IMG/VR virus record: IMGVR_UViG_2811995254_000001
Span: 1 to 64,000 of that record
Source: a virus
Lineage: Duplodnaviria > Caudoviricetes
Strand: one strand, 5' to 3'
Length of the DNA: 64,000 nucleotides
The notes beneath the pieces were generated by a model. That model was not told where the DNA came from. It made no database searches and worked only from the letters and a program-made list of their open reading frames with translations. Below, piece by piece: positions 1 through 20,691 of the stretch (its first letter is position 1; every line of letters starts with the position of its first letter). A program made the position numbers and the translations under genes.

Positions 1-402
1 ATGTTTAATGCTCGTGTTTTAAAAGAAGAAGATTACCTAGAATTAGTTTCTTGGTGGACTTGGTGGAGATTCCCCTCTCCTTTGCAGGAACTATTGCCTA
101 ACAATGGAACATGCAGAATTATGCTTTCAAAAGAAGGTATTAATATCAGTGCAGGATTCATATACCATACTAATTCAAAAATGTGTTGGATTGAGTTTGT
201 TGTGTCGAATCCAGACTACCGCGAATCAGACAGAAAAGAAGCATTATTAGCTTTAATAAATGAACTTGGAGAAATAGCTAAAAGCCAAGGTTACAAAGTA
301 GCTTATACCAATCTTAAAAACGCTTCTTTAATCAATCACTTTTCAGATTGTCAATATGTTAAAGGTTCTGTCCAAACAATAGAGATTGTTAAGATATTGT
401 AA
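1..402 (+). CDS. GNAT-like phage protein (copy of prophage gene 41174-41575)
   Basis: 133-aa ORF nearly identical to 41174-41575; GNAT-like pattern (WIEFVVSNPDYR...A...Gy). Confidence 0.75.
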   Translation: MFNARVLKEEDYLELVSWWTWWRFPSPLQELLPNNGTCRIMLSKEGINISAGFIYHTNSKMCWIEFVVSNPDYRESDRKEALLALINELGEIAKSQGYKVAYTNLKNASLINHFSDCQYVKGSVQTIEIVKIL

Positions 403-408
403 TAAAAA

Positions 409-432
409 ACCCCTTTTACAAATAAAAGGGGT
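409..432. terminator. Intrinsic terminator between convergent genes
   Basis: ACCCCTTTTA-caaa-TAAAAGGGGT hairpin. Confidence 0.7.
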
Positions 433-438
433 AAGGGG

Positions 439-1098
439 TTATAGAAAAATAATTTCTTGTATCTCTAAAGTAGGGTTAGCACTAGAAGGAAGCTGTAAAA
501 AAGTTTCTCTAATATTAAAGGATTGACTTACTGAAATGTCATGGTATGTATGGATATGATCTAGACCTTTTGCTATTAAATAATCTACTCCATTAGTTGG
601 TGTAGATCCTTGATTGGCAACTTTAAATCCTCTGAACATAGCACGTGGGCCAAGTGAACTAGGTAGTTGAGGAACTTCATTACATTTAACTGTTTTATAT
701 GAAGACACAGGGTACTGATATGTAGGAATACTCCACTGAACATCAGAAGTAGGTAAATAAGGAAACAATGGTGGTAGAGGACCACCACCAGGATGCAGCG
801 GCTCTGGATTACGTATCATTGTATATTTACTTGATGGAGCAGGACAATAATTAAATTCATTTATATCAGTAGGATGAAAATTACTAAATGTAATAAATTC
901 ACCAGGTTTTAATTGAATATAATGACCGACAACAACATGAAGATATCGTCCTGGGTTTATAGTTGGGTCAGAAAATGTCATCTCTAGTGCATAAAGATTT
1001 TTAATAACAGTAGAAGAATTTCGTATAGTTAATATTCTAGTTGCAAAACTTGTACTAGTGAATGCAAGAACAAATAATAGTGTTATAATTTTTTTCAT
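439..1098 (-). CDS. Secreted Pro-rich hypothetical protein (cargo, unit 1)
   Basis: Signal peptide MKKIITLLFVLAFTSTSFA; paralog of 2901-3539. Confidence 0.85.
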   Translation of the reverse strand: MKKIITLLFVLAFTSTSFATRILTIRNSSTVIKNLYALEMTFSDPTINPGRYLHVVVGHYIQLKPGEFITFSNFHPTDINEFNYCPAPSSKYTMIRNPEPLHPGGGPLPPLFPYLPTSDVQWSIPTYQYPVSSYKTVKCNEVPQLPSSLGPRAMFRGFKVANQGSTPTNGVDYLIAKGLDHIHTYHDISVSQSFNIRETFLQLPSSANPTLEIQEIIFL

Positions 1099-1103
1099 AG
1101 CTG

Positions 1104-1448
1104 TTAACTGTTTGTTATTTCTAAATATTTTGTTAATGCGTAGGTCATGATATCTTCTTGTGTGGTATATCCTCCCATGCTATACTCTCCTATAGAAAGT
1201 AAAAATGCCACAGCAGTATTAAAGCTTTCGGTAGAGTATAAAAATTGCTTGATATCAATTCTACCATGAATAAAGTCTATATAAAGTTTATCAAAGTCTT
1301 TGTATTCTGTACTCTGTCTTATACTAGAATTTGTATTCAATTCAGTTTTATTATGGCTATCATTTAGATTACCAATATTTTCAGGTTCATTACTACAACT
1401 AATAGTAAAAAACGCGCATCCTATGGCTAGGAATAAGATTTTTTTCAT
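1104..1448 (-). CDS. Lipoprotein (cargo, unit 1)
   Basis: Lipobox TISC-SNE; paralog of 3545-3889. Confidence 0.85.
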   Translation of the reverse strand: MKKILFLAIGCAFFTISCSNEPENIGNLNDSHNKTELNTNSSIRQSTEYKDFDKLYIDFIHGRIDIKQFLYSTESFNTAVAFLLSIGEYSMGGYTTQEDIMTYALTKYLEITNS

Positions 1449-1599
1449 AATAAATAATTTTAAAGTTGGTTTGTTAAATATAACAAATGTTAATTTAACT
1501 TAAAAAAAACAAATATAATAATTAACATTAAATACACTTTAACTATACTATATCAAAAAAATACCTAACAACTATTCTCACATTATATATTTCAGAAAT

Positions 1600-2025
1600 A
1601 AACAACCCCTAAAAGAAAGTTTTGAAGTAAGACAACATCAACCACCAAATGGTTTAAACCCTGATGAAATAGACAAATGGGATAATAATTATGATGACTT
1701 TTCGTATGATGAAGGGAAAAATAGAATAATGAAGTATTTTAAAGGAACATTTAAACCAACAAAAAGAATAATTAAACAAAAAGCATCTTTTTTTAAACAA
1801 CTAAATACAATTGAAGAGATATTTATTTCTGGGCATTCAATGTCGAAGGTAGATCTTCCTTATTTTAAGGAATTAGATAAACATATAAACACTCATGTTA
1901 AATGGACAGTGTCATATTATAATAATGAAGAATATAACAGACATGAAGAAACACTTAATAGTATGGGGATATCAAGTACTACTATAAATTTTGTTAAACT
2001 TGATTATTTAAAAATAAACAATTAA
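1600..2025 (+). pseudogene. 5'-truncated AbiH-like (SIR2-like) abortive infection gene fragment
   Basis: GHSMSKVDLPYFKEL...KWTVSYY motif; reading frame stays open upstream of the called ATG (1729) to about 1600. Confidence 0.65.
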
Positions 2026-2071
2026 GTTTATTTACACCTTAGATAAAAAACATTTGACAAGATAAATTCTT

Positions 2072-2355
2072 CTAATTTTTCCAAACCCAAAGCACTTTCA
2101 CTGTTTTGGGTTTTTCTTTTTTCATTCAGCTTTTCAATAATTTATGCCTTAATCAAATCGCTTTTAGAAGCTTCTTTTGGATTATATAATTCAACTGGTA
2201 ATCTACTCTCCCGACAGCATTTCGCGCATTTCTTAGCAAATTTGACATGCTTTTGCAGTCATAGTATAAAGATGCTCATTTTTATTTTCATCTTTAGCAG
2301 CACCCGATATATATCCCATTCGAATTAAGCGATCTACGTTCTAATAGGTATATTG
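2072..2355 (-). pseudogene. 3' fragment of a homolog of prophage gene 15311-15889
   Basis: CCCAAAGCACTTTCACTGTTTTGGG and TTAATCAAATCGCTTTTAGAAGCTTCTTTTG shared with 15325-15597. Confidence 0.9.
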
Positions 2356-2357
2356 TA

Positions 2358-2467
2358 GATGGAGGAGAAATATATCGTATTATACAGATATAGAAATAAT
2401 AAATAATGATGATAAGCCAATTGAATTATTTGCTATTAACTCCAATATCGTAAAAAGTTATGTTTAA
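2358..2467 (+). pseudogene. 3' fragment of a homolog of prophage tail gene 40462-41181
   Basis: GATGGAGGAGAAATA...GAATTATTTGCTATTAA...AAAAAGTTATGTTTAA matches 41071-41181. Confidence 0.9.
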
Positions 2468-2861
2468 TGCTCGTGTTTTAAAAGAAGAAGATTACCTAGA
2501 ATTAGTTTCTTGGTGGACTTGGTGGAGATTCTCCCCTTCTTTGCAGGAACTATTGCCTAACAATGGAACCTGTGGAATTATGCTCTCAAAAGAAGGTATT
2601 ACTATCTGTACAAGATTCATATATTATACTAATTCAAAAATGTATTGGATTGAGTTTGTTGTGTCGAATCCAAACTATCGCGAATCGGATAGAAAAGAAG
2701 CTTTAGTTTCGCTTATCAATGAACTTGGAGAAATAGCAAAAGTACAAGATTACAAAGTACCTTATACTAATCTAAAAAATACTTCTTTAATCAATCACTT
2801 TTCAGATTGTCAATATATTAAAGGCTCAACACATACTACAGAAATGATTAAAGTGCTATAA
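2460..2861 (+). CDS. GNAT-like phage protein, copy 2
   Basis: Full-length 133-aa copy. Confidence 0.7.
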   Translation: MFNARVLKEEDYLELVSWWTWWRFSPSLQELLPNNGTCGIMLSKEGITICTRFIYYTNSKMYWIEFVVSNPNYRESDRKEALVSLINELGEIAKVQDYKVPYTNLKNTSLINHFSDCQYIKGSTHTTEMIKVL

Positions 2862-2862
2862 T

Positions 2863-2897
2863 AAAAAAACCTTTCTAAAGTTTAGAAAGGTTTTTTT
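2863..2897. terminator. Bidirectional intrinsic terminator
   Basis: AAAAAAACCTTTCTAAA-g-TTTAGAAAGGTTTTTTT palindrome. Confidence 0.8.
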
Positions 2898-2900
2898 ACA

Positions 2901-3539
2901 TTATTGAAATATAATTTCATGTGATTCTACAATTCCGGGGTTAGGAAGACTTGGCATTCTAAAATATTTTTCTTTGATATTATGTGGTGTATGTACATAA
3001 CCATCAATAAATACAGGTTCAAAATAATCTATTGCGTGAATATTGCCGTTAACGGGGTCTTTTTCACAAATTTTAAATCCTCTAAATTCTAATCGATTAC
3101 CCAATGTTGCAGGTAGTGGTGGTACAACGTCACAATTCTCTGAAATATATGGATTGTAATCTTCATCAGGATTGTATGGATCATATATATAATTTATCCA
3201 TCTAAACGCATAAGTATCAGGAGGGATGATAGGAATAGGAGGGTCTGGATATTCAGAATGAATAACTTTATGAGTACTATCTGAAGATGGACAGAATTCA
3301 AAACCATTTATGCCAGATTGAATATAACTAAACGTAATAAAATCTCCAGGCTCTAATACAATATAGTCTAATATCGACCTATATGTATGGTAGATTGTTG
3401 TTTGGACTGAATCGTATTGCATCTCTAATGCAAAAAAATATTTAGTTTCGTTAGATAGATTTCTTATTGTTAAAACTCTACCTGCAAAAGTTGTGGTAGT
3501 GAATGCTAAAAGGAATATAAGTAGTGTTATTTTTTTCAT
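2901..3539 (-). CDS. Secreted hypothetical protein (cargo, unit 2)
   Basis: Signal peptide; shares LTIRN, LEM, PG.FITFS, FRGFK and EIIF blocks with 439-1098. Confidence 0.85.
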   Translation of the reverse strand: MKKITLLIFLLAFTTTTFAGRVLTIRNLSNETKYFFALEMQYDSVQTTIYHTYRSILDYIVLEPGDFITFSYIQSGINGFEFCPSSDSTHKVIHSEYPDPPIPIIPPDTYAFRWINYIYDPYNPDEDYNPYISENCDVVPPLPATLGNRLEFRGFKICEKDPVNGNIHAIDYFEPVFIDGYVHTPHNIKEKYFRMPSLPNPGIVESHEIIFQ

Positions 3540-3544
3540 AGCGA

Positions 3545-3889
3545 TTAACTGTTTTTGATTTCGAAATATTTTGTCAAAGCATAGGCCATAATTTCTTCTT
3601 GAGTTGTATATCCACCGAAACTGTATTCACCAATAGACAGCAAAAAAGTTACAGCAATATCAAAGCTATCATTAGAATACAAAAACTGCTTAATATCAAT
3701 TATCTCATAAATATAGTCCATATAGAGTTTATCGATTGCCTTATATTCATCGCTCTCTTTTATAACTGAATAATCAGCTAACTCAGTTTTATTATGGCTA
3801 TCATTTAGATTACCAATGTTTTCTGGTTCATTACTGCAACTAACAGTCAAAAACGCACATCCTATAGCTAGGAAGAAGATTTTTTTCAT
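3545..3889 (-). CDS. Lipoprotein (cargo, unit 2)
   Basis: Lipobox TVSC-SNE. Confidence 0.85.
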   Translation of the reverse strand: MKKIFFLAIGCAFLTVSCSNEPENIGNLNDSHNKTELADYSVIKESDEYKAIDKLYMDYIYEIIDIKQFLYSNDSFDIAVTFLLSIGEYSFGGYTTQEEIMAYALTKYFEIKNS

Positions 3890-4044
3890 AATATATAATT
3901 TAAAAATTGGTTAGTCTAAATATACATAATGTTAATTTAACGTAAATAAACAAATAGAACTAATTAACATTTAATACACTTTAACTATACTATATCAAAA
4001 AAACATACTTAACAAATGCTCTCGCACTACATATCTCAGAAATA

Positions 4045-4468
4045 AACAACCCCCAAAGAAAGTTTTGAAGTAAGACGACATCAACCACCAAATGGTTTAA
4101 ATCCTGATGAAATAGACAAATGATATAATAATTATGATGACTTTTCATATGATGAAGGGCAAAATAGAATAATGAAGTATTTTAAAGGAACATTTAAACC
4201 ACCAAAAAGAATAATTAAACAAAAAGCATCTTTTTTTAAACAACTAAATACAATTGAAGAGATATTTATTTTTGGACATTCACTGTCAAAAGCAGATCTT
4301 CCTTATTTTAAGGAATTAGATAAACATATAAACACTCATGTTAAATGGACAGTGTCATATTATAATAATGAAGAATATAACAGACATGAAGAAACACTTA
4401 ATAGTATGGGAATATCAAGTACTGCTATAAATTTTGTTAAACTTGATAATTTAAAAATAAACAATTAA
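4045..4468 (+). pseudogene. AbiH-like fragment, copy 2
   Basis: GHSLSKADLPYF motif; in-frame TGA upstream at ~4121. Confidence 0.6.
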
Positions 4469-4514
4469 GTTTATTTACACCTTAGATAAAAAACATTTGA
4501 CAAGATGAATTCTT

Positions 4515-4907
4515 CTAATTTTTCCAAACCCAAAGCACTTTCACTGTTTTGGGTTTTTCTTTTTTATTCAGCTTTTCAATAATTTATGCCTTAATCAAAT
4601 CGCTTTTAGAAGCTTCTTTTGGATTATATAATTCAACTGGTAATCTACTCTCCCGACAGCATTTCGCGCATTTCTTAGCAAATTTGACATGCTTTTGCAG
4701 TCATGGTATAAAGATGCTCATTTTTATTTTCAACTTTAGCTGCACGCGATATATATCCCATTCGAATTAAACAATCCACGTTCTAATAGGTATATCGTAG
4801 ATAGAGGAGAAATATATGGTATTATACAGATAGAAACGATAAATAATGATGATAAGCAAGTTGAATTATTTGCTATTAACTCCAATATCATAAAAAGTTA
4901 TGTTTAA
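4515..4907. pseudogene. Second copy of the fused 15311-15889 / 40462-41181 gene fragments
   Basis: Matches 2072-2467. Confidence 0.85.
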
Positions 4908-5300
4908 TGCTCGTGTTTTAAAAGAAGAAGATTACCTAGAATTAGTTTCTTGGTGGACTTGGTGGAAATTCCCCCTCCTTTGCAGGAACTATTGCCTAAC
5001 AATTGAATCTGCGGAATTATGCTTTCAAAAGAAGGTATTAATATCTGTGCGGGATTCATATACTATACTAATTCAAAAATGTGTTGGATAGAGTTTGTTG
5101 TGTCAAATCCAAACTATCGCGAATCGGATAGAAAAGAAGCTTTAGTTTCGCTTATCAATAAACTTGGAGAAATAGCTAAAAGCCAAGGTTACAAAGTAGC
5201 TTATACTAATCTTAAAAACGCATCTTTAATCAATCACTTTTCAAATTGTCAATATATTAAAGGCTCAACACATACTACCGAAATGATTAAGATATTATAA
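4900..5300 (+). pseudogene. GNAT-like gene copy 3, frameshifted
   Basis: 1-nt loss near 4971-4978 plus GGA>TGA at ~5005; split into ORFs 4900-5091 and 5019-5300. Confidence 0.85.
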
Positions 5301-5301
5301 T

Positions 5302-5336
5302 AAAAATATCAGAGTTTAACTACTCTGATATTTTTT
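5302..5336. terminator. Bidirectional intrinsic terminator
   Basis: AAAAATATCAGAGT...ACTCTGATATTTTTT. Confidence 0.8.
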
Positions 5337-5358
5337 GATATTTGTAGTGATAATATAT

Positions 5359-5709
5359 CTAATTATCTGAAGGTATGGATGGTTCTATTATAAGGCAGTT
5401 TGATATATTTGAAATATTATATCCATGTAATGACATGTATCCGTTGCCATTCTGATCAATATCTGTTGGATATAATTGATACAACTCCTGAGATCTTTGG
5501 TAAGCCCCTGCTTCTGTATATCTACCATATTCAACATAGCTTGTTGTATACTTTGTAGGATTGTTATTTATCCATTGAGTTCTATGAACTTCAAATTTAT
5601 AACAAGCTTTTATTGGCTGAATAATTTGATCATCTTTAATAATTTCGCCTGAATTAGCAAATGTTCCTAATGACATCGTCAATGCTAATCCTAATAATAA
5701 TTTCTTCAT
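5359..5709 (-). CDS. Small secreted protein (cargo, unit 3)
   Basis: Signal peptide MKKLLLGLALTMSLGTFA, shared start with 41620-41946; two Cys. Confidence 0.85.
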   Translation of the reverse strand: MKKLLLGLALTMSLGTFANSGEIIKDDQIIQPIKACYKFEVHRTQWINNNPTKYTTSYVEYGRYTEAGAYQRSQELYQLYPTDIDQNGNGYMSLHGYNISNISNCLIIEPSIPSDN

Positions 5710-6279
5710 AATAAATAATTTTAAAATTGGTTAGTCTAAATATACGTAATGTTAATTTAACCTAAATATACAAGCGGAACTAATTAACATTTAATACACT
5801 TTAACTACACTATATCTAAAAAAACATACCTAACAACTACTCTCATACTACATATCTAATTTAACTAGATAGAACATCCAAATCTAAAACAATTCAATAT
5901 AGTCCATAAAGCCTTTATGCGGCATTATTACAGCTATACTACATACTACACTATTATAATGACAGTAGGGCCGATACCTCTACTGGGTCTTTTCATTCTA
6001 AAATCAAATACTTTAGAATGATGTATAGGGGAGTTAGAGATAAAGCATTCTTTCTCTTTAGATTGACTAAACTTTTTACCTAAGAAAATATAAATGCAAT
6101 AGGGTGTATAGGATGCGACCCTTCTCCTTCCTTCGTCAGGATGACAAAAATGGAAGAGATTTTTTTATTCTTCAGGACATACGAATCGGAAAAGCTTACT
6201 TAAAAAAAACACTCTTTTTTATGCTATCCCCAAGTTTTGTACTTGATCCGAAATCTACAATTTGGCTTAATTGTATAAA

Positions 6280-6307
6280 AAAACCCTACACAAATGTGTA
6301 GGGTTTT
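6280..6307 (-). terminator. Terminator downstream of the tRNA 3' remnant
   Basis: AAAACCCTACAC-aaat-GTGTAGGGTTTT. Confidence 0.8.
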
Positions 6308-6314
6308 CTTTTTT

Positions 6315-6331
6315 GTGACGATGACAGGATT
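6315..6331 (-). other. Putative prophage att site (tRNA 3'-end duplicate, possibly tRNA-Arg)
   Basis: Reverse complement AATCCTGTCATCGTCAC resembles the 3' half of a T arm plus acceptor end; followed by a terminator; phage genes start immediately to the right. Confidence 0.6.
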
Positions 6332-6477
6332 ACTTTTAATTTAATTAATCAAGTCATAACCAATATATTACAAGTAAAAAAGCTTCACTTTGCACGACTG
6401 TTGCACAACAAAGATAAAGCTTATTTTATGGTATTTTACGTTGATTAACTACAATAAACAAAATACAATTCATTTAT

Positions 6478-6690
6478 TTACTTGTTTTGCAAAATTAAAT
6501 TCATCTGCAAAGCTTCCAAAAACAACTCCAAAGTATCTAAGGAAAAAGCTCTTTTCCCATTTTCATAGTTTGATATTTGAGCTCTCTTGGCAGGATCTCC
6601 CCAAACAAGTATCGCGAGTTCCTCCATCGTGAGACCAAGTTCAATCCTACGAGCTTTTAATTTTTGAGCTATTTCTTCTTTTAACGACAT
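6478..6690 (-). CDS. XRE-family HTH regulator
   Basis: LKARRIELGLTMEELA...ISNYENGKR; start MSLKEE preferred. Confidence 0.85.
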   Translation of the reverse strand: MSLKEEIAQKLKARRIELGLTMEELAILVWGDPAKRAQISNYENGKRAFSLDTLELFLEALQMNLILQNK

Positions 6691-6799
6691 AATTTCTATA
6701 ATTTTGTAGTTGCAAATTTTTAATAGGGTTAAAAAAATGCAGACATATTTTCCCGTTGGTGTGTGGTAACCCAACGGGATTTTTTTTTATTAAGTAAAA

Positions 6800-7186
6800 C
6801 TAAAGATTAATTTCTAATTCTTTTCCTGTAAGGGCGAAATAAAGGTTTTGGAGTTGGTGGAGGTAATGTACTTCTATTTTACCCAGTCCTATAATAACTA
6901 ATACACTACACTTTTCAGTTACATCGAAAACAGTTGATTTGAAAAATATTCCATTGTGATGATATTCTGCAAAAGCATCGTCATCCTGTGTTCTAATAAT
7001 GAACCCACATTGCAGCAACCTTTCTTCTGTCAGTTCGATTGGTTTTATATTATTCCAATCAACAACACCTATCCCAAATTCTCCAGTATTAAGTGTTGGA
7101 AAAACTTCTGCAATTGTGTCTATTTGAAAAAATCTATTATCATATTCTATCCAGTTACCTATACGTACTTCATTTGCTTGTATCAT
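6800..7186 (-). CDS. Hypothetical phage protein
   Basis: C-terminal YLHQLQNLYFALTGKEL, typical of Bacteroidetes phage proteins. Confidence 0.8.
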   Translation of the reverse strand: MIQANEVRIGNWIEYDNRFFQIDTIAEVFPTLNTGEFGIGVVDWNNIKPIELTEERLLQCGFIIRTQDDDAFAEYHHNGIFFKSTVFDVTEKCSVLVIIGLGKIEVHYLHQLQNLYFALTGKELEINL

Positions 7187-7332
7187 ACTTCAAAATTTAA
7201 ATCATCCATAAATTCAAAGTGCACGTCTCCGTTAGGGAAAATCACTTTCATTTCTTCTTGTCCGTACAAATCCCTTGTTTCATCTGTTAGCTGTACTATC
7301 TCTCCGGTTGGAATGTATATTGCTGTTTTCAT
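7183..7332 (-). CDS. Small hypothetical protein (49 aa, not in ORF track)
   Basis: MKTAIYIPTGEIVQLTDE...LNFEV; overlaps both neighbours' start/stop codons. Confidence 0.65.
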   Translation of the reverse strand: MKTAIYIPTGEIVQLTDETRDLYGQEEMKVIFPNGDVHFEFMDDLNFEV

Positions 7333-7754
7333 TAGTATAGTGGTTTTTTATGTTTTACAATAGGTTTGTAATGTGTTATCACTCCACAAGACCATCCTTT
7401 TGCTAGAGATTCACGTGGCATTTGATATTCTTCTCTAGGGATTCCTTTTTCACATACCATATAACTCCCGCCATTATCTATTGGCAAATCATCTTTGCTT
7501 TCAATACGAATCCAACCGTTATTATCTTCAATACCTTGTAATGATTTTGGTCTGATTTTATAGAACCATTCATCAAAGTGATAGCATTCGAATTTACTAT
7601 CGTATTTAGGGTTTGAAACTTCTTCTATGTCTATATCAGACATATCCGTAATTATCCACCCATCATTTTTTAGACAGTGTTCTCTATTTTTATCTCCTAT
7701 ACAATTAAAATGTATTCCCCACGCTTCTTTAATTACTTGTTCTTTTGTTTTCAT
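7332..7754 (-). CDS. Hypothetical phage protein
   Basis: RPKSLQGIEDNNGWIRIES motif. Confidence 0.8.
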   Translation of the reverse strand: MKTKEQVIKEAWGIHFNCIGDKNREHCLKNDGWIITDMSDIDIEEVSNPKYDSKFECYHFDEWFYKIRPKSLQGIEDNNGWIRIESKDDLPIDNGGSYMVCEKGIPREEYQMPRESLAKGWSCGVITHYKPIVKHKKPLY

Positions 7755-7887
7755 AATAAATAGAGCAGTTTAACGACGTGCCCAGGTGCTTTAATAGGGT
7801 TAAAAAAATATTCTTGATACTTGGAAAGTGAAGTAAACTAGTGCGAATACTATCAATTGATAGCTTAGTCGCTTGCTGTGTTTAGTA

Positions 7888-8115
7888 TTACTCATTGCCT
7901 AGATAGATTTTGTTTCCTTCAATCTCTTCAATGATTACTTTGTTTCCTGCTGAGGGAAGTCCCCCCGGATCATCATTCCAAATGAACATGTAGTATTGTT
8001 CATTGGCTTGTTCTAATTTTTCGATTTGCTTAGTTATACTATGGAAAGTAAAAACAGCTGATACAGTAAGTACCAAGCACACCCCCGCAAGGGCAAGGAT
8101 AAGATTGTATTTCAT
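7888..8115 (-). CDS. Small membrane-anchored protein
   Basis: N-terminal hydrophobic helix. Confidence 0.7.
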   Translation of the reverse strand: MKYNLILALAGVCLVLTVSAVFTFHSITKQIEKLEQANEQYYMFIWNDDPGGLPSAGNKVIIEEIEGNKIYLGNE

Positions 8116-8174
8116 TTTTTAATAGGGTTTAAAGAAAGCCCTTACGTTGTGGTAAATTGTAAGGACTTATTTTT

Positions 8175-8354
8175 TTAGTAATTAAGTAAGTTGTATATGA
8201 TTTTGGGAAGCTCCCAATCTGTGACGTCTATCCATGTGTGAAATAGTTTGCCTTGCTTAGTGTATTCTTCTTTAGCTAGAAGCCTGTTGTTTTTCACTTT
8301 AGTTTCTATTCCGTGGCTTTCTATTATTTCTTGTATATCAATTCTTTTTTTCAT
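8175..8354 (-). CDS. Small hypothetical protein (59 aa, not in ORF track)
   Basis: MKKRIDIQEIIESHGIETK...LLNY, preceded by the AACCCTATTA motif. Confidence 0.65.
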   Translation of the reverse strand: MKKRIDIQEIIESHGIETKVKNNRLLAKEEYTKQGKLFHTWIDVTDWELPKIIYNLLNY

Positions 8355-8550
8355 GAGATTATTATTTTAATAGGGTTATTTAATATTTGTGGTAACGGCT
8401 TGCATAGTGGTAATTATCAAGCCTGATTCGCTTAGTTATAATTTAAGAACTACAACCAAGACTCAAGAGAGAGAGCAGACAGTAAGTCAAAGAACACCCC
8501 TAGGGGGGAATCAAAAAAAAGAAGTATTACTTCCTTTCTTTTATGTTATA

Positions 8551-8558
8551 CAAATGTA
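8551..8558 (-). promoter_or_regulatory. Bacteroidetes -7 promoter element for the leftward small-gene operon
   Basis: TACATTTG on the minus strand matches TAnnTTTG. Confidence 0.5.
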
Positions 8559-8898
8559 TAACAACTATTTTATATAAAAAAGCATTAATTAAAAAGTTTT
8601 GATACGTAATTTCTATAGTAAAACACAATGCAATAGATAATCGTTATAGTTATTGATTTCCCTTTGTTTTAAAGGCTTTAATTAAAGTTTACGCATACAA
8701 TGTTAGAAGAGGATAAATAATTGAACTGTGGTAAAATTTAATAGGTAATGAATCGTATTGACATGAATGAAGGGTGATGAAAAAACAAACACAAACGCGC
8801 TGTCGTGTAGATCTCTTTTATTGTTTACATACATTAAAGAATAAATACACACAATTCTGTATCTTAGCACGGAGAAAAAGTACATAAATCTGTATATT

Positions 8899-9054
8899 AT
8901 GATAAACGAATTAATCAATGTAGCTGAACTAAGCAAGGTGTTATCAGGCAACAATCAATCGATAAGAAAAAAGAAAGTACCAACGAAGTACAATGCAGCA
9001 GTTCAGGAACTTAACGACCTTTTAGAGTACTGGAAGAAGCGCCACAATTTGTAA
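8899..9054 (+). CDS. Small putative DNA-binding protein (51 aa, not in ORF track)
   Basis: MINELINVAELSKVLSGNNQSIRKKKVP..., HTH-like pattern. Confidence 0.55.
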   Translation: MINELINVAELSKVLSGNNQSIRKKKVPTKYNAAVQELNDLLEYWKKRHNL

Positions 9055-9582
9055 TGCGTTGTGCAATGGTCGTGCAGAATTCACACACACAAACCTCAAC
9101 GCGTTGTTTTACAACGTATTACACTAAATAGTTCGAATCATACTAAGATTACACTTTCCTTTTGAAGTAGTTTACTTCCTAGAAAATCAATAAAGCCAAA
9201 AGACTAATACTGAAATTAGTTGCTGATTAAAATCAGTTATGAATGCCTGGATATAAAAAGCTAAAATGTTTTTGAACTGAAAAGCAAATCGACCCCCAAT
9301 ACCCTTTTGAATCGCGTTTTCCTTTTGCGGTCCGTTCGCTCAGAAACATGTATATCATCCCAAACACTCTATCATATCTCACTTTTATCATTTAATACCC
9401 TTTTCCTTGCTTCTAAAAGACTTTTTTCTTTTTAAAAGCCCAATTATCATTTAATCTATTTCAAAGGCTTAAAACAAGCTTATTTACAATTACCCAAACG
9501 AAGATATATCCGCTTTTTATTCTAGCTAAAAACTAACTAAAATATTTTATATAAATTACATACAATTGTATTTAAAATTTTA

Positions 9583-9590
9583 TATATTTG
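9583..9590 (+). promoter_or_regulatory. Bacteroidetes -7 promoter element
   Basis: TATATTTG just upstream of ORF 9604. Confidence 0.6.
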
Positions 9591-9603
9591 TCATGTATCA
9601 AAA

Positions 9604-9918
9604 ATGAAGAATATGAACAAGGCAATCTTTATTTCGGTAATTGAATCGATCAAAGAGCAAACGACAAGGGATTATGAAATCTCAAACAGTTTAGCGCAGG
9701 TGTATAGAACACAAGTTCCTGTTTATGACAATTCATTTTTGTTGAAAGCAATTAAGGATATAATGCTTTTTCATTTCAATAATCAGGCAGAAGCTTTGAG
9801 TGAAATTGATCACTATTGTTTCTTCTGCAATTTTGGGCGAATTGAAAAAGACGGAGATGTGTTAATTGAAACTGCTTCTGAATTATATGACCGATTGGCT
9901 TTGGAATTTTTAAAATAG
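9604..9918 (+). CDS. Hypothetical phage protein
   Basis: ORF with promoter and A-rich initiation region. Confidence 0.75.
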   Translation: MKNMNKAIFISVIESIKEQTTRDYEISNSLAQVYRTQVPVYDNSFLLKAIKDIMLFHFNNQAEALSEIDHYCFFCNFGRIEKDGDVLIETASELYDRLALEFLK

Positions 9919-9956
9919 ATCATTGACATTTTTGGCATTTGTGTATAGAAAATATA

Positions 9957-10084
9957 TAAACCATTCGCTGCGAACTTGATTCGCTGAGGGAATGACAACC
10001 CAACGTGGCGTAATAATAGCATACGCGTAGGCGGTTTGAACGGGCTTTTTGACGTCTTTATTGCACGGCTGGCGGGTGGTTTTA
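9957..10084 (+). ncRNA. Candidate structured ncRNA A
   Basis: Ends pair (AAACCATTCGC / GCGGGTGGTTT, G-U on + strand); three internal hairpins. Confidence 0.5.
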
Positions 10085-10089
10085 TTTAA

Positions 10090-10160
10090 GCGCATGTGGT
10101 GTAGCGGTAGCACAACAGTCTCCAAAACTGTTTGCAGAGGTTCGAATCCTTTCTTGCGTG
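10090..10160 (+). tRNA. tRNA-Trp (CCA)
   Basis: ACAGT-CTCCAAA-ACTGT anticodon arm; GGTTCGAATCC T arm; acceptor GCGCATG/CTTGCGT with one mismatch. Confidence 0.85.
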
Positions 10161-10166
10161 CAAACT

Positions 10167-10478
10167 ATGAAACGTTTGTTTGTGCTTTTTACAATGCTGT
10201 TTTGTTTCAGTATTGCGGGAATCTGTAAAACTACAATAGACCTGAGCGAAAATTCAAAACAGAAAACAGAGGTTGCTTCTTTTTCTGATGTAGTAAAAGT
10301 TGATGCGGTTTTCGCTTCAGTTGATTTAAAAGCTGATGTAGGTAGTCAGTATGTTTTTTCGGTCCCCAGTGTATTGACTGATAAAAAACATATTTCTACT
10401 TATATTATTTCGCTAAATTTGGAACCGCTGCAATCTGAGGTTATTATTTGCATTCGGGATAAAATTAGGATTACCTAG
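10167..10478 (+). CDS. Putative secreted protein
   Basis: MKRLFVLFTMLFCFSIAG signal-like N-terminus. Confidence 0.6.
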   Translation: MKRLFVLFTMLFCFSIAGICKTTIDLSENSKQKTEVASFSDVVKVDAVFASVDLKADVGSQYVFSVPSVLTDKKHISTYIISLNLEPLQSEVIICIRDKIRIT

Positions 10479-10601
10479 CTTTTATAATAAACAACAAACC
10501 ATTTTAAAAAAGCCTTTCTAATCATTAAGTATTTATATGCTTTATTGACGTTCTATGGAAAGGCTTTTTTTTCTTAAACAAACACTTCATTTTTACTTTT
10601 T

Positions 10602-10675
10602 AGTCTATTAGCTCAGTTGGCTAGAGTGCTTGCTTGTCACGCAAGAGGTCGCGAGTTCGAATCTCGTATAGACTG
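10602..10675 (+). tRNA. tRNA-Asp (GTC)
   Basis: Acceptor AGTCTAT/ATAGACT; CTTGC-TTGTCAC-GCAAG; GTTCGAATC T loop. Confidence 0.92.
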
Positions 10676-10736
10676 CAATTCATATTTTATGGTTTTTGGT
10701 TAATAACCAGTTTGTTACTTCTGTAAAAAGTAATGG

Positions 10737-10871
10737 TAAGTAGTGGCGGAATTGGTAAGACGCTAATTGAATAAGTATTTAGGAGACATAGAAGTGGAAT
10801 TCTATGCCGCCTGTCAGATAATTTCAGAAAGATATTCAATACCATTTCAGGTTCGAGTCCTGACTACTTAA
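10737..10871 (+). ncRNA. tRNA-like RNA with a 59-nt insert replacing the anticodon loop
   Basis: Acceptor TAAGTAG/CTACTTA; Leu-like D arm GGCGGAATTGGTAAGACGC; T arm TCAGG-TTCGAGT-CCTGA; ATTGAATA/TATTCAAT stem. Confidence 0.75.
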
Positions 10872-10889
10872 CAATATTCTTTTTTTCAT

Positions 10890-11069
10890 AAAAACACTTC
10901 AACGCTGAGCCAAGTCAGCAAGTATCTGCAAAGGGTTTAAGGAAACATCCCCACCATAGTACTAAATATTCAAGCAGGCGATATTTGAGAATTCAGATCG
11001 TGTAACGTTACATATAGTGAGTGTATACGTAGCTATATTTTATAAAAAACTGAATGTTGAAGTGTTTTT
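10890..11069 (+). ncRNA. Candidate structured ncRNA B
   Basis: Perfect 14-bp closing stem AAAAACACTTCAAC/GTTGAAGTGTTTTT enclosing several hairpins. Confidence 0.5.
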
Positions 11070-11083
11070 TAAATCAATGTATC

Positions 11084-11266
11084 ATGGCGAAACAGACAAA
11101 AACAACATTGCTTCCTGATAACACAGTTGTCGAGGTTGTGATGAGAAAAACTATGACACTTGCCGAATATGAAAAAATGATGCCAATTAGTAAAAGTAAA
11201 GGTTGGAGTGTACAAGCTTATCAAGAAGGTGCGTATTCCGATGGATTAGGTAAAAAGGTTGAGTAG
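11084..11266 (+). CDS. Hypothetical protein
   Basis: ORF; ATG start MAKQTK preferred. Confidence 0.6.
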   Translation: MAKQTKTTLLPDNTVVEVVMRKTMTLAEYEKMMPISKSKGWSVQAYQEGAYSDGLGKKVE

Positions 11267-11586
11267 TGATAAAAGTAAATATCAAACCGCTTTCAGTAAA
11301 TGAAGTTTGGCAAGGTCGCAGGTTTAAAACTCCAGCGTATCAATCTTACGAAAAAGCAGTTTTACTAATGCTGCCAAAGCGAATTGAAATCCCTCCCCCT
11401 CCTTTTTCAATCACTTTTGAATTTGGAGTTTCCAGTAAACTTTCGGATTGGGATAATCCTATAAAGCCTTTTCAAGATATACTATGCAAGAAGTATGGTA
11501 TTGACGATAGGGATATTTACAAAGGAACTGTTTCAAAGGTCCTTGTAAAGAAAGGCGAAGAGTATATAAAATTTAAAATTGAGTAG
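11266..11586 (+). CDS. RusA-like Holliday junction resolvase
   Basis: KPLSVN...SDWDNPIKPFQDIL...IDDRDI acidic motifs. Confidence 0.85.
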   Translation: MIKVNIKPLSVNEVWQGRRFKTPAYQSYEKAVLLMLPKRIEIPPPPFSITFEFGVSSKLSDWDNPIKPFQDILCKKYGIDDRDIYKGTVSKVLVKKGEEYIKFKIE

Positions 11587-11588
11587 GT

Positions 11589-12287
11589 ATGCGTGTACTA
11601 GGTAGTGATTCAAGTGTAGCTTTTTCATTGAATTATATTAGATGTGCTTGTGATATAGTTATGAGTCCTATTAATTATTTTCAATTAATTAAAAACGGTT
11701 TTAGACCAAAGGAATTCATATACAACAATAAAGTAAAAATTTTAATTGAATTAAGTCAAATGGATGATGTTGACAATATTAGTTCTAATATAGAAGATAA
11801 GCAAAATGTAACAAATATTTGGTTTCATTTTGATAATGAATCGAAATTTGACGATTTAGTAAAATTTACAGATGGAGCTGTATTCAAGGATTCTATTGGA
11901 TACTGCCTTAGATATGGAAATAAGATTGGATATTTTAATATTGGTGATTATATAGGAAAAAGAGAAGATGGATCTCTACTTGTTCTATGTGCTCAGTTTA
12001 GATCAAATATAAATGAAGTAGGCATTTTTCCCATTATGCACGTACAAATTCCTGAAATTAAATGTCACTCTTTTATAAAAGAACATTGGATAAATAAATT
12101 TGATTATTTCCCTGATCTTTTAAACAAACCAAAACGAATCCGCACTCAAGATGAATTAGACAACGAACGTTTAACTGAAATTGTTGACGCGATTGTACGT
12201 TATAGAAAATCAGAAATGGCTGTTCCTACTGAATGGATTCAAGAATACAATACGATAATTGAAAGAATTAAAAATAACACTAAATAA
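11589..12287 (+). CDS. Hypothetical phage protein
   Basis: 232-aa ORF in operon. Confidence 0.7.
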   Translation: MRVLGSDSSVAFSLNYIRCACDIVMSPINYFQLIKNGFRPKEFIYNNKVKILIELSQMDDVDNISSNIEDKQNVTNIWFHFDNESKFDDLVKFTDGAVFKDSIGYCLRYGNKIGYFNIGDYIGKREDGSLLVLCAQFRSNINEVGIFPIMHVQIPEIKCHSFIKEHWINKFDYFPDLLNKPKRIRTQDELDNERLTEIVDAIVRYRKSEMAVPTEWIQEYNTIIERIKNNTK

Positions 12288-12294
12288 AATTGCT

Positions 12295-12708
12295 ATGTCA
12301 GATTTTAAAACACGTTTAGAAAACGAAGTAAAAGAAGAAACAGAAAAGTTAGGTAAATTAAAAGCGTTTCTTGAAAGCGAAAAAGTAAAAGAATTGGATA
12401 ATGAAATGCAATGCTTGATGTGTGAACAGTATCATTATCAAAAAGGATATGTGAAGGTAATTAAGAAGCGATTAGATATCCTCGAAGACAAGGCTCAATC
12501 AGGTACCGAAACTCTTGGTATGAAACGTGTAGGATTGAAATTTAATCCTTCTGGACATGTAAATGTTCATGTTGCAAAAACCATTCAAGCCGATTTTATT
12601 GATTTTGCAGAGTTTTTAAAATCACATGGTGTCGATCAAAGATGTGCTTCTATTGCGCAAACTGAAGCAGAAACAGCAGCAATGTATTTAGTAAAATCCA
12701 ATTTCTAG
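12295..12708 (+). CDS. crAss001_48-like domain fused to an Acb2/Tad1-like helical-hairpin domain
   Basis: N-half FKTRLENE...KLKAFL...Q...Y..V.KKRL; C-half RVGLKFNPSG...R.ASIAQTEAETAAMYLVKS. Confidence 0.6.
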   Translation: MSDFKTRLENEVKEETEKLGKLKAFLESEKVKELDNEMQCLMCEQYHYQKGYVKVIKKRLDILEDKAQSGTETLGMKRVGLKFNPSGHVNVHVAKTIQADFIDFAEFLKSHGVDQRCASIAQTEAETAAMYLVKSNF

Positions 12709-12861
12709 CTATGAAAAAGGGAATCGATGAATTAAGTGATAATTTGATTTTTGAAGATGTAATAATCGGATTGAAAGACTACGATGGTATTTAACCTGTA
12801 ATATTAGTTGTGTTGTTAAAGGCTGGTTTCTCGTAAGCCAGCTTTTTTATTTTGAAATGTT

Positions 12862-13059
12862 ATGAACGAGAAAGATTTAAAGAAAATAGAAAAACACTTT
12901 GCCAAGGCCAAAGCAATTCACTGTTTGAAGCTAAACAAAGAAGTAAACGTAAGCAACGTTCCTCGATTGCAGTATAATCCGGATGAAGATACAGTAACAA
13001 GTCCTTCCGGTATTATTTGCTTTTGGAAACAGGGCGAGTTTGCGAGAATCATTAAGTAA
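12862..13059 (+). CDS. Hypothetical protein
   Basis: ORF. Confidence 0.65.
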   Translation: MNEKDLKKIEKHFAKAKAIHCLKLNKEVNVSNVPRLQYNPDEDTVTSPSGIICFWKQGEFARIIK

Positions 13060-13079
13060 CCTATTAAATTTAATAAAGC

Positions 13080-13334
13080 ATGCAGTTATTAGGACATAGA
13101 ATTTTATGCACTCGCATAGTTGAAGAAAAACAAACCACAAGCGGTTTAATCTTACCCACAAACTACCAAAGTGAAGATGAATACAAGGTGGTTGATATAG
13201 GGGTAAAAGTGAAACACATCAAACCAGGTGATCGCGTTAGGAAGTTTAAATATTCGGATGGATTACAAGTTGTAGATGATGGAGTCGAATATCTTGTCTT
13301 GAGTGAAAAGGATGATGTTGAGTTGATTGTATAA
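13080..13334 (+). CDS. groES: GroES-like co-chaperonin
   Basis: LGHRIL...EEKQTTSGLILP...KVVDIG...IKPGDRV...GVEYLVLSEKD. Confidence 0.9.
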   Translation: MQLLGHRILCTRIVEEKQTTSGLILPTNYQSEDEYKVVDIGVKVKHIKPGDRVRKFKYSDGLQVVDDGVEYLVLSEKDDVELIV

Positions 13335-13670
13335 CAAAAAAAAAGGCCCCTAACCGGTTAGCCTTTTTGTAAAATAAAATTCAATTATGCGATATAAAGA
13401 AGCCCTTTATCCGCATGGTAGCATACTGCGACAAATCCGTTTCTACCATTTCCCCCAATTTTGTAATAATACCTGTCTGGGGATCCAGCTCTTCCTACCC
13501 ATTCTCTGAACAAGGAAGAAAAAAAACTTTTTAAAACTGAGAAGAATAAACTTCTTGAAATTTTTAAAGTCATAATATGAATGTGTCCTTGGATTAATAT
13601 TCCAACGTTATTGTTAGAACCTGACAAGGTACAGAATTGCATTAAATATACGACTTTTGTTTTTGTAATA

Positions 13671-14324
13671 CTAATTTTCTTCATTTATTAATTTCAGGTA
13701 GTCTTGTTCTGTATGTATTATACCTGGAGATATACCTACCTTACCATCGTAATTTTCACTAAACACTTTTAAAAATTGATAATATTTTATACCATGATTT
13801 GTGATATATGTTATTTTAAATTCATAATAAAGAGGAATATTGTCTTCTTTTAGTGGATTAAAGCTATACCCAAATATGTATTTACCGTTGTTTAATGCTA
13901 AATTTTCTTTCATTACGCCCACACCACAATTTGCATTATCGACTGAAAAGGATTTCATATTACTGTTAGTATTTGTATTGTAAATAATAATTTTGTATTT
14001 ATACCCCAATTCTCCAGATGTTATATACATATCTATTATTGGCAACATTAATAATTCAACTTTATTTCTGTCATTTAAAGATATTTCTTTTAGATATTCA
14101 GCAATATTTTTAAGTTCAGATATTTCATTTTGTTGATTAGTAACCATTGTAATTAAACTTTCAGAAGCCGAAACAAGGCTGTTTATTTGTTTCTGTTTAT
14201 CTTTATCTTTTTTGAATAATAGTATAAATGCTATTATAGCGCCAGGAATTGAAATTACAGCAGCTATCCCTTGTAACATATCTGTCCAAGAAGGATTACC
14301 TATATTTAAAAAATTTTCAAGCAT
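13671..14324 (-). CDS. Moron: N-terminal TM plus coiled-coil protein
   Basis: TM helix, AT-rich, opposite orientation to flanking operon. Confidence 0.75.
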   Translation of the reverse strand: MLENFLNIGNPSWTDMLQGIAAVISIPGAIIAFILLFKKDKDKQKQINSLVSASESLITMVTNQQNEISELKNIAEYLKEISLNDRNKVELLMLPIIDMYITSGELGYKYKIIIYNTNTNSNMKSFSVDNANCGVGVMKENLALNNGKYIFGYSFNPLKEDNIPLYYEFKITYITNHGIKYYQFLKVFSENYDGKVGISPGIIHTEQDYLKLINEEN

Positions 14325-14496
14325 ATTGTGTTGTCAATATTGTGTAAATATATCACTTGTATTTAAAAGTACTAAATAAAAAATTTAATGATCCTTTATT
14401 TTTTGTTTGTGTTAATTAAGTTAAAATAAATTATATTTGCTTTATTACGAAACGACAATATCCCTAGCTATTTTATTAAACTACTCCGTAAATTAA

Positions 14497-15144
14497 ATGG
14501 AAATATCAGAATTAACATTAAAGCTAATAATACTTTTAACACCTGGTATTTTAGCAACTACCATATATAAGCGGCTGACAATTAGACATAAAGAACAATC
14601 AGATTTTATGTTTGTTGTTATCTCAATCATGTTTGGTATGTTCTCTTATTTAATTCTTCAAATTTTTAATTATTTGATCTCTTCGATAAATAATTTTTGT
14701 TCCAAAAGTTTGGTAAAGTTTGAAACTATTAAAACTTTCTCCGATTTATCAAATGGAAACTCAATTCCATATTCAGAAGTAATTTTGGCATGTGTTATAA
14801 GTATAATTTTAGGATTCTCAATTTCAAAGCTTGATCACTCGAAATTAATTAATACTTTAGCTAGAAAATGGAAAATTTCAAACAAATATGGTGATGAGAA
14901 CTTATATTCATATTTCTTAAATTCTCCCGATATTAATTGGGTTTATGTTAGAGTAATTGAAAATTCAATAACTTATCTTGGTTGTGTTGAATCATTTTCT
15001 GAAACTCCAGATAATAAAGAAATTGTATTAGGTCAAGTAACAGTTTATACTTATCCTGACAGTAAAAAAATGTATGAAATAGATCGTATATACCTTGTGT
15101 TTCCTAAAGATAAAGTAATTATTGAACAAGCAAACCTTAAATAA
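14497..15144 (+). CDS. Moron: multi-TM membrane protein (DUF6338-like)
   Basis: LLTPGILA...three TM helices...YLGCVESFSE; TATATTTG upstream. Confidence 0.7.
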   Translation: MEISELTLKLIILLTPGILATTIYKRLTIRHKEQSDFMFVVISIMFGMFSYLILQIFNYLISSINNFCSKSLVKFETIKTFSDLSNGNSIPYSEVILACVISIILGFSISKLDHSKLINTLARKWKISNKYGDENLYSYFLNSPDINWVYVRVIENSITYLGCVESFSETPDNKEIVLGQVTVYTYPDSKKMYEIDRIYLVFPKDKVIIEQANLK

Positions 15145-15145
15145 A

Positions 15146-15280: not shown

Positions 15281-15310
15281 ATTCTTGTGTTATTAACTAT
15301 AGTATAAACA

Positions 15311-15889: not shown

Positions 15890-15892
15890 AGT

Positions 15893-17409: not shown

Positions 17410-17478
17410 AATAAAAAAAATCTATCATCTTACTCAAAGATAATAGATTTTTACTATACTGTAGTTATTTAAAATAAA

Positions 17479-20688: not shown

Positions 20689-20691
20689 TTT

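Follow-up and report, generated by a model that had tools for sequence, protein, structure and literature searches.

In P2/P4 hotspots, variable accessory genes lie at fixed positions of phage or satellite genomes. Integron or rAID-like arrays consist of tandem small variable genes that are separated by repeated conserved sequence. Phage morons are accessory transcription units between conserved phage genes, as an excerpt of PMC3594210 describes them, and an excerpt of PMC6379469 reports that cryptic or "grounded" prophage remnants keep useful genes. Here, we analyzed the first 64 kb (64,000 nucleotides, hereafter the window) of the IMG/VR virus record IMGVR_UViG_2811995254_000001, a single contig of 75,802 bp, in which a tandem array of phage-derived units at positions 1-5860 adjoins a resident prophage. 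The array is probably the tandemly amplified relic of a second phage in the chromosome of a Myroides bacterium, and this phage was related to the resident one. The locus combines known things, namely morons, prophage relics and tandem paralog arrays. In the literature on Myroides prophages and on tandem moron relics, such an array was not found described, and Myroides prophages have so far only been catalogued by automatic tools, according to the part of PMC6391281 that treats them.

A direct-repeat search and a self-BLAST comparison showed that 1-5860 holds at least 2.4 head-to-tail units of about 2.44 kb, which confirms an array that had been proposed from the letters alone (the sequence-only reading). 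The units start 2459 and 2439 nt apart, and one self-match (875-2867 against 3319-5306) extends over 2000 nt at 88% identity (E = 0). Unit 1 is incomplete; the record starts inside it, at the ATG of its GNAT-like gene copy. The parts of a unit are a fragment of an AbiH gene, the 3' end of a phrog_17028 gene, the 3' end of a muzzle C-domain (muzzle-C) gene, a GNAT-like gene, and a cassette of terminator, cargo and leader (Table 1). We use cargo for the exported-protein genes of the cassettes and scaffold for the phage genes around them. The earlier claim that the units repeat 41071-42050 of the resident phage was upheld: 2358-2869 and 4800-5302 match 41071-41583 at 90-92% identity, 1-404 matches 41174-41577 at 90%, and the leaders are 75-79% identical. 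The unit layout that had been described was right in the parts it listed, but it had overlooked the AbiH fragment and the phrog_17028 3' end. Likewise, the scaffold had been called near-identical between units, whereas its identity runs from 78 to 99% and is not uniformly high. Units 1 and 2 do carry a lipoprotein and a secreted protein as diverged paralogs, unit 3 a 116-aa protein and the phage a 108-aa protein. The latter two had been thought unrelated; they are not wholly so, as they have the signal peptide and the first cysteine in common.

Like integron or rAID arrays, the array is thus a series of tandem small variable genes between conserved repeats. However, it has no adjacent integron-type integrase and no attC-like sites, the only recombinase being the phage tyrosine integrase, 70 kb away. 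Moreover, its repeats are an upstream leader and decaying phage genes, and the exchange that we infer is homologous and not site-specific.

Repeats at the edge of a record could raise the suspicion of a spurious duplication, as short-read contigs break inside these repeats. Such an artefact is extremely improbable here. Along the unit, the copies show 1-60% difference and contain different genes, and exact look-ups placed every array protein, together with the proteins of the phage slot (the cassette position behind the GNAT-like gene of the resident phage), on one contig of 4,167,722 bp. The public runs X2 and X3 have contigs with unit-specific sequences at 100% identity, X4 has such sequences in pieces, and the source sample may be among these runs. 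Consecutive accessions of Myroides sp. TSA_177.3 (MGQ8868396, -398, -399 and -400) encode a secreted protein (224 aa), an AbiH fragment (172 aa), a lipoprotein and a secreted protein (219 aa), which is the gene order of the array units, with one unlisted gene after the 224-aa protein and a different secreted-protein allele in the neighbouring unit. In a Myroides odoratus assembly, one contig contains an AbiH fragment as well as a GNAT fragment and a 116-aa gene, the latter two with accession numbers two apart. Because of these loci and the unit-specific sequences in other runs, the array is neither private to one strain nor an assembly artefact. In an X4 contig, the unit-3 leader adjoins an AbiH segment, which suggests a different order of units in that run. 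Parts of the array were uncovered in runs X3, X4 and X19, and cover of 6294-6500 was low in X4; these weak signals were not used as evidence. Array DNA and DNA of the phage slot region had no match in INPHARED, scans of metagenomes with the junction pattern and with an alignment of the secreted proteins found nothing, and a scan of genome contigs with the GNAT copy returned a single unrelated locus in a metagenome-assembled genome.

The origin of the units can be read from their scaffold. The phrog_17028 3' ends in the array are 83-85% identical to 15325-15595 of the resident phage, and they are joined to the muzzle-C end at GTAGAT/GGAGG (about 2353/2358), at the same base in both copies. In a phage with the gene arrangement of the resident one, this junction equals a simple loss of about 15594-41070 (about 25.5 kb). 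Since both copies have it in common, one deletion followed by tandem duplication is indicated, and not the parallel decay of several prophages. Outward from the attachment (att) site, the sequence of leader, cargo, GNAT-like gene, muzzle end, phrog_17028 end and AbiH end keeps the order and orientation of the phage. The AbiH fragment covers positions 197-260 of 260 in Pfam PF14253 (E = 5.8e-15) and 256-338 of 343 in the PADLOC model (E = 6.4e-10); it is truncated at its 5' side, not full-length, and its frame is open up to the leader junction. A suspected third, chromosomal copy of this fragment (157 aa) turned out to be the unit-1 locus annotated from an upstream start. Beside the phrog_17028 gene and convergent with it, 13341-15322 is a second variable position of these phages, with a protein of 215 aa in the resident phage and of 273 and 197 aa in its relatives G003 and G002, respectively. 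Thus, it is plausible that an AbiH gene stood there in the ancestor of the array.

These results show that one deletion of about 25.5 kb joined the phrog_17028 3' end, with the neighbouring AbiH fragment, to the muzzle-C 3' end. The GNAT-like gene and a moron cassette (terminator, opposite-strand exported cargo and conserved leader) remained at the junction, and the relic of about 2.44 kb was subsequently duplicated head to tail to at least 2.4 copies. The sequence-only reading had spoken of a domesticated, amplified prophage remnant, and the phage-derived genes, their amplification and the single deletion junction agree with it. Gene order, together with 47 nt beside the att core that are described below, suggests that the relic began as a tandem second lysogen that has since been gutted, an origin that we consider fairly likely. 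As in cryptic prophages, truncated phage genes lie beside an att site and accessory genes are kept as phage functions decay. The difference is that head-to-tail amplification followed once this remnant had been cut down to about 2.4 kb.

The att site was located by comparison with two related records. G002, an IMG/VR provirus about 80% identical to the resident phage, is bounded by a 21-bp direct repeat, one copy just upstream of the integrase and the other just beyond an XRE-type repressor gene. In G001, which is the same phage at 99.96-100% identity, the two arms are joined via a single copy of the 21-mer, and G001 is, by this arrangement, the attP form. An attP form beside an integrated G002 suggests that the phage was present excised or as a circle in that assembly and is therefore active. 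G001 is an isolate-derived record (L019, G001 1-5000), and its phage is the one integrated in G002. The window aligns to the attP of G001 from 6264 to 6865 at 79% identity, straight across the core; therefore, the array is external to the resident prophage, at the XRE-side end. The comparison with G001 and G002 shows that the array adjoins the XRE-side att junction on its outer side, with the core at 6313-6335, in agreement with the earlier placement next to the att site. This core-like sequence resembles a tRNA 3' end (T-loop and acceptor strand). No intact tRNA was called at the att site, where relaxed settings gave only a degenerate tRNA-like call in G002, and Rfam found no RNA family above chance in the att region or the array. 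The 47 nt beyond the core (6264-6312) resemble the integrase-side (P') arm of attP and not the host flank of G002. One att core and one P'-like arm are therefore present at 6264-6335, while the far end of the array lies beyond the record. Within the spacer between array and att site, 6098-6233 is a dispersed multi-copy element. In each of the four runs its depth is at least doubled, letters vary and both of its sides have loose ends, and its depth in an RNA library is very high; 6090-6240 had no Rfam match and did not fold better than shuffled sequences.

The P'-like sequence to the left of the core is what an attP form would show, and the provirus caller did put the array in the record, as if it were a part of the packaged phage genome between integrase and attP. 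We regard this as very unlikely. The record begins exactly at the ATG of a 133-aa open reading frame (ORF) and ends at the exact start codon of the minus-strand tyrosine integrase gene, which indicates a provirus trimmed at gene borders; joining these ends would abut two start codons without a spacer. The attP form has only 183 nt between the integrase start and the core. Furthermore, the array is missing from G003 (95% complete, 68,950 bp) and G002 (96%), each of which has one GNAT copy only, and 5.9 kb of broken duplicate genes are unlikely to persist in a phage. The 4,167,722-bp contig and the named cargo homologs, which are all from Myroides, indicate instead a Myroides chromosome that carries an integrated phage; on this evidence, the host is a Myroides strain with the phage in its 4.17-Mb chromosome.

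Three of the four scaffold genes are present as fragments only, and 1-6263 contains no capsid, terminase or replication genes. The fourth, the GNAT-like gene, has changes at two (unit 1) and four (unit 2) of 22 positions that are invariant in eight phage homologs, and in unit 3 it is broken: a C run near 4970 has lost 1 nt, and an in-frame TGA stands near 5004. The ratio of nonsynonymous to synonymous substitution rates (dN/dS) is 0.20-0.26 among the array and resident copies, compared with 0.04-0.06 among phage orthologs, whose dS is saturating. These sequence changes show that the phage scaffold genes are decaying. The resident copy belongs to phrog_17252, and 2654 representatives of the family were counted at E <= 1e-3. 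For the window protein itself, Pfam gave no match; its Atlas cluster is auto-named GNAT, 5 of 52 family members reach PF00583, and the 52-member profile matches 1mk4_A (E = 5.8e-4) and the acetyltransferases 3f8k (0.018) and 2eui (0.16) in the PDB. The label GNAT-like is thus reasonable for what may be a distant GNAT.

The cargo has fared differently. All five cargo ORFs of the array are intact. The lipoproteins of units 1 and 2 are 76% identical in amino acids (dN/dS = 0.12 at dS = 1.10), and the secreted proteins of 219 and 212 aa are 42% identical (dN/dS = 0.62). That the cargo rather than the scaffold is preserved therefore agrees with the intact ORFs, the low dN/dS of the lipoprotein and the decaying GNAT copies. 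A decaying duplicate whose functionless cargo is merely still unbroken could also be considered, given the dN/dS of the secreted pair, the scaffold decay and the lack of any function or family match for the cargo. However, five of five intact cargo ORFs are set against one broken and two altered GNAT copies and fragments of three other genes, the lipoprotein has kept its low dN/dS at high dS, and several Myroides assemblies and species have full-length homologs (43-98% identity). Neutral decay is accordingly quite improbable.

The usual picture of a decaying prophage does not include cargo alleles that are older than the scaffold. In this array, by contrast, the cargo alleles are much older. 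Between units 1 and 2, identity is 97% at the 5' end of the GNAT-like gene and 78% at its 3' end, 37-63% in the secreted-protein gene, 73-79% in the lipoprotein gene, 81-86% in the leader and 94-99% in the AbiH/phrog_17028 part. Correspondingly, the lipoprotein has a dS of 1.10 and the AbiH fragment one of 0.076, and unit 3 has a different cargo between the same flanks. Cargo dS far above scaffold dS, and identity that falls towards the cargo from both sides, indicate that the cassettes were swapped by homologous recombination. Crossovers in the GNAT-like gene and in the leader would be the simplest reading of the identity profile. It could be that concerted evolution of the AbiH/phrog_17028 part exaggerates the contrast between cargo and scaffold. 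Since the relic formed, the scaffold has thus been decaying through truncations, the frameshift and stop, and changes of invariant residues, the cargo has stayed intact, with conservation across Myroides strains, and cassettes were replaced by homologous recombination with other phages or other array copies as donors.

The resident phage has the same kind of cassette in its slot at 41576-42055. This 480-bp insertion is missing, at the same point (34530/34530), from the closest phage, G003, and G001, G002 and G004 have an 80-nt intergenic gap there. The cassette resembles a phage moron: a 480-bp unit with its own terminator hairpin and leader stands between two conserved virion-module genes, encodes an exported protein and is missing from a 96-100% identical relative, and the same leader precedes other cargo elsewhere in a related phage. 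Unlike a moron, however, the slot (with its putative promoter) also survives here outside a functional phage, in a tandem relic with several allelic cassettes. Interchangeable cargo between conserved flanking genes recalls the P2/P4 hotspots; the position differs in being rarely used, and its cargo has no match to a known defence protein. The sequence-only reading had assumed a generally variable moron slot, which does not hold, as 72 of 74 loci have an empty slot, and so do the three closest Myroides phages. When slots were counted by homology, 15 of 18 were empty, the exceptions being L028 (853 nt), L033 (374 nt, with a 42-aa signal-peptide-like ORF) and the resident phage.

It had also been proposed that the resident phage exchanges cargo with the array, which would make the array an active archive, that is, a maintained library with two-way exchange with resident or incoming phages through the GNAT-like gene and the leader. 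Different cargo between the same flanks, and identity dropping towards the cargo from both sides, would fit this idea. In addition, the resident GNAT-like gene is closer to the unit-3 copy (93.3%) than to its ortholog in G003 (88.1%), the resident copy and unit 1 have an exact tract of 86 nt in common, and the neighbouring unit of TSA_177.3 carries another allele (224 aa). The comparison with G003 speaks for a different source. G003 is 96-100% identical to the resident phage over 39200-40800, 75-90% from 40800 to the insertion, 80% for 400 nt after it, and then 93-100%. The divergent patch at about 40800-42455 (about 1.65 kb) has phage arms on both sides, while the array lacks 40800-41070 and 42056-42455; thus, the donor of the slot was another phage. 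Moreover, no unit matches the slot region exactly over more than 86 nt (tracts of 47-86 nt), so that a recent exchange with the resident phage is not seen. The homology on the right-hand side is short (about 110-165 nt at 75-82%), a recombination test within the GNAT-like gene was non-significant, and a check for cargo alleles shared with related phages, which had been suggested earlier, found no array allele in INPHARED or IMG/VR. Active exchange of this kind is therefore unlikely. The same low probability applies to the array as a maintained store of moron cassettes, with the decaying GNAT-like gene and the leader as homology arms for repeated trading between Myroides and its Pachyviridae-like phages. 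If true, this would be the counterpart, between a host and its phages and by homologous recombination, of silent-cassette systems.

The cargo proteins have signal peptides, one lipobox and conserved cysteines, and the secreted proteins of the 219/212-aa family have conserved ends and a variable, proline-rich middle. For each of the three cargo families searched, we found seven homolog clusters of similar length, whose named members are all from Myroides. Lipoprotein and secreted-protein families co-occur on contigs of 210,317, 16,066 and 19,650 bp, which indicates that they travel as a pair. The 116-aa family forms tandem paralogs in other strains, for example the adjacent HX004_09650 and HX004_09655 of Myroides sp. 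1354. The only PHROG match is that of the 116-aa protein to phrog_4895, a family without an assigned function (E = 1.6e-5). Profiles of the cargo had no match among PDB sequences, the lipoprotein had only unnamed Bacteroidota clusters in the Atlas, and an alignment-based cargo scan of IMG/VR recovered only the flank of G002.

A leader of about 110 nt precedes every cassette, and the array leaders match 41930-42047 at 75-79%. A leader profile detected four copies in the resident contig (three in the array, one in the slot) and three in G002, of which two lie in the flank beyond att, each before a gene of the 116-aa type, and one lies inside the phage. It detected none in G003 and none in 80 related viral loci. 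The leader is, by this distribution, a lineage-specific upstream module for exported cargo. The internal copy in phage G002 (L014 4524-5421; G002 24524-25618) precedes a 264-aa lipoprotein (Cys then SDD) and a 65-aa membrane protein, and this site adjoins an NA37-type gene. About 35 nt ahead of the ATG, the leader has a TAnnTTTA box, which we presume to be near the Bacteroidetes -7 consensus. Terminator-like hairpins occur at 10 sites compared with 2.1 expected in shuffled sequences; one stands directly after the GNAT stop in unit 1, unit 3 and the phage, and one is also visible in unit 2, each cassette having a different hairpin. Taken together, the cassettes may be self-promoted lysogenic-conversion genes for envelope or secreted proteins, kept by the host after the death of the phage. 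The likeliest role of the cargo might be a change of the cell surface towards phages (exclusion) or towards neighbours (interference).

The distribution of the leader would fit the promoter region of a moron and, equally, that of a native Myroides gene family copied by phages. If such a family was present near the att site, phages might have copied one of its cassettes, and recombination might have dragged phage DNA into the chromosome before the duplication. Two tandem leader-plus-cargo units without phage scaffold in the flank of G002, the adjacent paralogs in Myroides sp. 1354, and a leader that, among the loci examined, was found only in Myroides-linked records would be expected in this case. 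So would cargo families restricted to Myroides; the secreted-protein family had 0 hits in 401 Flavobacteriaceae genomes, a search without a positive control that says little. This history, the main alternative to the relic, is somewhat unlikely, for the deletion that joined the AbiH and phrog_17028 pieces to the muzzle end is sensible only on a whole phage genome, the pieces hold phage order and orientation outward from att, beginning with the P'-like arm, and the same leader stands before a different lipoprotein at a second site within phage G002. The flank of G002 (L016 12271-14721; G002 72271-74721) encodes a 350-aa membrane protein and two tandem secreted paralogs of 121-126 aa.

Several results weigh against the relic of a second phage or against the parts of this account. 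The two paralogs in the flank of G002 are 54% identical, and each has the leader without any phage scaffold; these bare units suggest that the cassettes may be native chromosomal genes that were copied by phages. The 47 P'-like nucleotides could belong to the host, as native DNA downstream of the target; the record does not reach the att junction on the integrase side of the resident prophage, and no integrase or other phage relic was found in 5858-6263. Neither a phage carrying the AbiH fragment nor one carrying an array cargo allele was found in INPHARED or IMG/VR, so no donor is known. The slot is rarely filled: the next forward ORF starts less than 150 nt after the GNAT stop in the 72 empty loci, where the 74 consist of the resident phage, which is one of the two occupied, and 73 of 80 related IMG/VR loci (7 were too short). 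For recombination, the pairwise homoplasy index (PHI) test gave no significant result within the GNAT-like gene (p = 0.28; 6 sequences with 45 informative sites). The five array cargos and the slot cargo have no match in Pfam, NCBIfam or PADLOC. The roles that the sequence-only reading had named as examples (superinfection exclusion, antagonism or immunity) thus have no support from a match to a family, a defence protein or a structure. A sigma-70 scan found 40 sites compared with a shuffled mean of 42.3, hence no excess, and expression data consist only of short contigs of a related strain from one RNA library that possibly contains DNA.

The resident phage (about 69.5 kb) bears an integrase, which is 40.6% identical to gp37 of Cellulophaga phage phi18:3, and it encodes a portal, a large terminase, virion proteins and a crAss-type muzzle C-domain. 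Its large terminase is 60% identical to those of Cellulophaga phages phi46:3 and phi18:3, and its portal 43% (phi18:3). By tblastn, 16 different gene products and two array GNAT copies match phi18:3 in conserved order, which includes the muzzle, a 239-aa protein, the GNAT-like gene, two virion proteins and a giant protein. Pachyviridae is the name proposed for the phi18:3/phi46:3 group in PMC8776804, an excerpt of which also notes integrases in some environmental members. We place the resident phage there by shared proteins and gene order (record NC_021794, phi18:3) and not by genome-wide thresholds of the International Committee on Taxonomy of Viruses (ICTV). It is like these phages in its homologous portal and virion proteins, its tyrosine integrase and its genome size (71-76 kb), and in phi18:3, too, the GNAT-like gene is followed by three small convergent genes, one of which encodes a signal peptide. 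However, it is integrated, its host is Myroides, a 20-kb structural block is inverted, and the described phages have no known array. A free crAss-like phage genome, which the muzzle domain could suggest, was ruled out by the integrase, the att analysis and the 4.17-Mb contig.

Table 1. Positions in the window of the array parts, the att region and the corresponding features of the resident prophage.
Feature	Position	Strand	Remark
GNAT-like copy, unit 1	1..402	+	ORF intact
Terminator-like hairpin between convergent GNAT copy and cargo of unit 1	409..432	.	
Unit-1 cargo, 219-aa secreted protein, signal peptide	439..1098	-	Myroides-only family
Unit-1 cargo, 114-aa lipoprotein, lipobox TISC	1104..1448	-	
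Leader copy 1, upstream region and 5' untranslated region of cargo operon	1445..1590	-	
AbiH fragment copy 1, C-terminal part only	1600..2025	+	98-aa ORF 1729-2025
Terminator-like hairpin, convergent AbiH/phrog_17028 fragments	2083..2113	.	Also in phage from 15323
phrog_17028 3' fragment copy 1	2086..2353	-	Matches window 15325-15593
Muzzle-C 3' end copy 1	2358..2459	+	Matches 41071-41173
GNAT-like copy, unit 2	2460..2861	+	ORF intact
Unit-2 cargo, 212-aa secreted protein	2901..3539	-	
Unit-2 cargo, 114-aa lipoprotein	3545..3889	-	
Leader copy 2	3886..4036	-	
AbiH fragment copy 2	4045..4468	+	ORF 4172-4468; 96.6% nt identity to copy 1
phrog_17028 3' fragment copy 2	4529..4797	-	
Muzzle-C 3' fragment copy 2	4800..4899	+	Junction as in copy 1
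GNAT-like copy, unit 3, pseudogene	4900..5300	+	
Terminator-like hairpin, unit-3 cassette	5302..5335	.	
Unit-3 cargo, 116-aa secreted protein	5359..5709	-	Myroides-only family
Leader copy 3, array end	5706..5857	-	
Unique spacer, array to att	5858..6263	.	Unmatched in related phages
Piece like integrase-side (P') attP arm of related phage	6264..6312	-	Includes terminator hairpin 6280-6307
att core-like sequence	6313..6335	-	Related to 21-bp core bounding G002
Resident Pachyviridae-like prophage	6336..64000 in window, on to contig position 75802 (integrase start codon)		
Resident phrog_17028 gene	15311..15889	-	3' end repeated in array
Muzzle-C 3' end and GNAT-like gene, resident	41071..41575	+	
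Moron cassette, 480 bp	41576..42055	-	Hairpin, 108-aa secreted cargo 41620-41946, leader 41943-42051

Some further features of the resident phage were observed. The structural block of about 20 kb at 15893-36152 (virion proteins, portal, terminase and tail fibre) is inverted in the resident phage and G003 relative to G002 and phi18:3, and self-BLAST found no inverted repeat at its ends. A 66-bp tandem repeat (13.5 copies, 95% matches) at 63801-64000, on to contig position 64890 (L018 1-890), lies in frame within a 541-aa minus-strand ORF at 63366-64991. Genes for tRNA-Trp (10090-10161) and tRNA-Asp (10602-10676) are located inside the prophage; since both are also in G002, and tRNA-Asp in G003 as well, they are phage-borne. 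A phage homolog of the 37-kD nucleoid-associated protein (PF04245, E = 1.4e-55) is encoded at 54991-56046.

The locus would show how accessory genes can outlive their phage: a 2.4-kb scrap around a moron slot is amplified, and its cargo is replaced by old divergent alleles while the surrounding phage genes rot. It also offers a testable place for the study of selection on lysogenic-conversion genes, of cassette replacement by homologous recombination, and of small exported proteins of Myroides. Finally, integrated and probably active Pachyviridae-like phages with a defined att core are documented here in Myroides, a poorly studied opportunistic bacterium.

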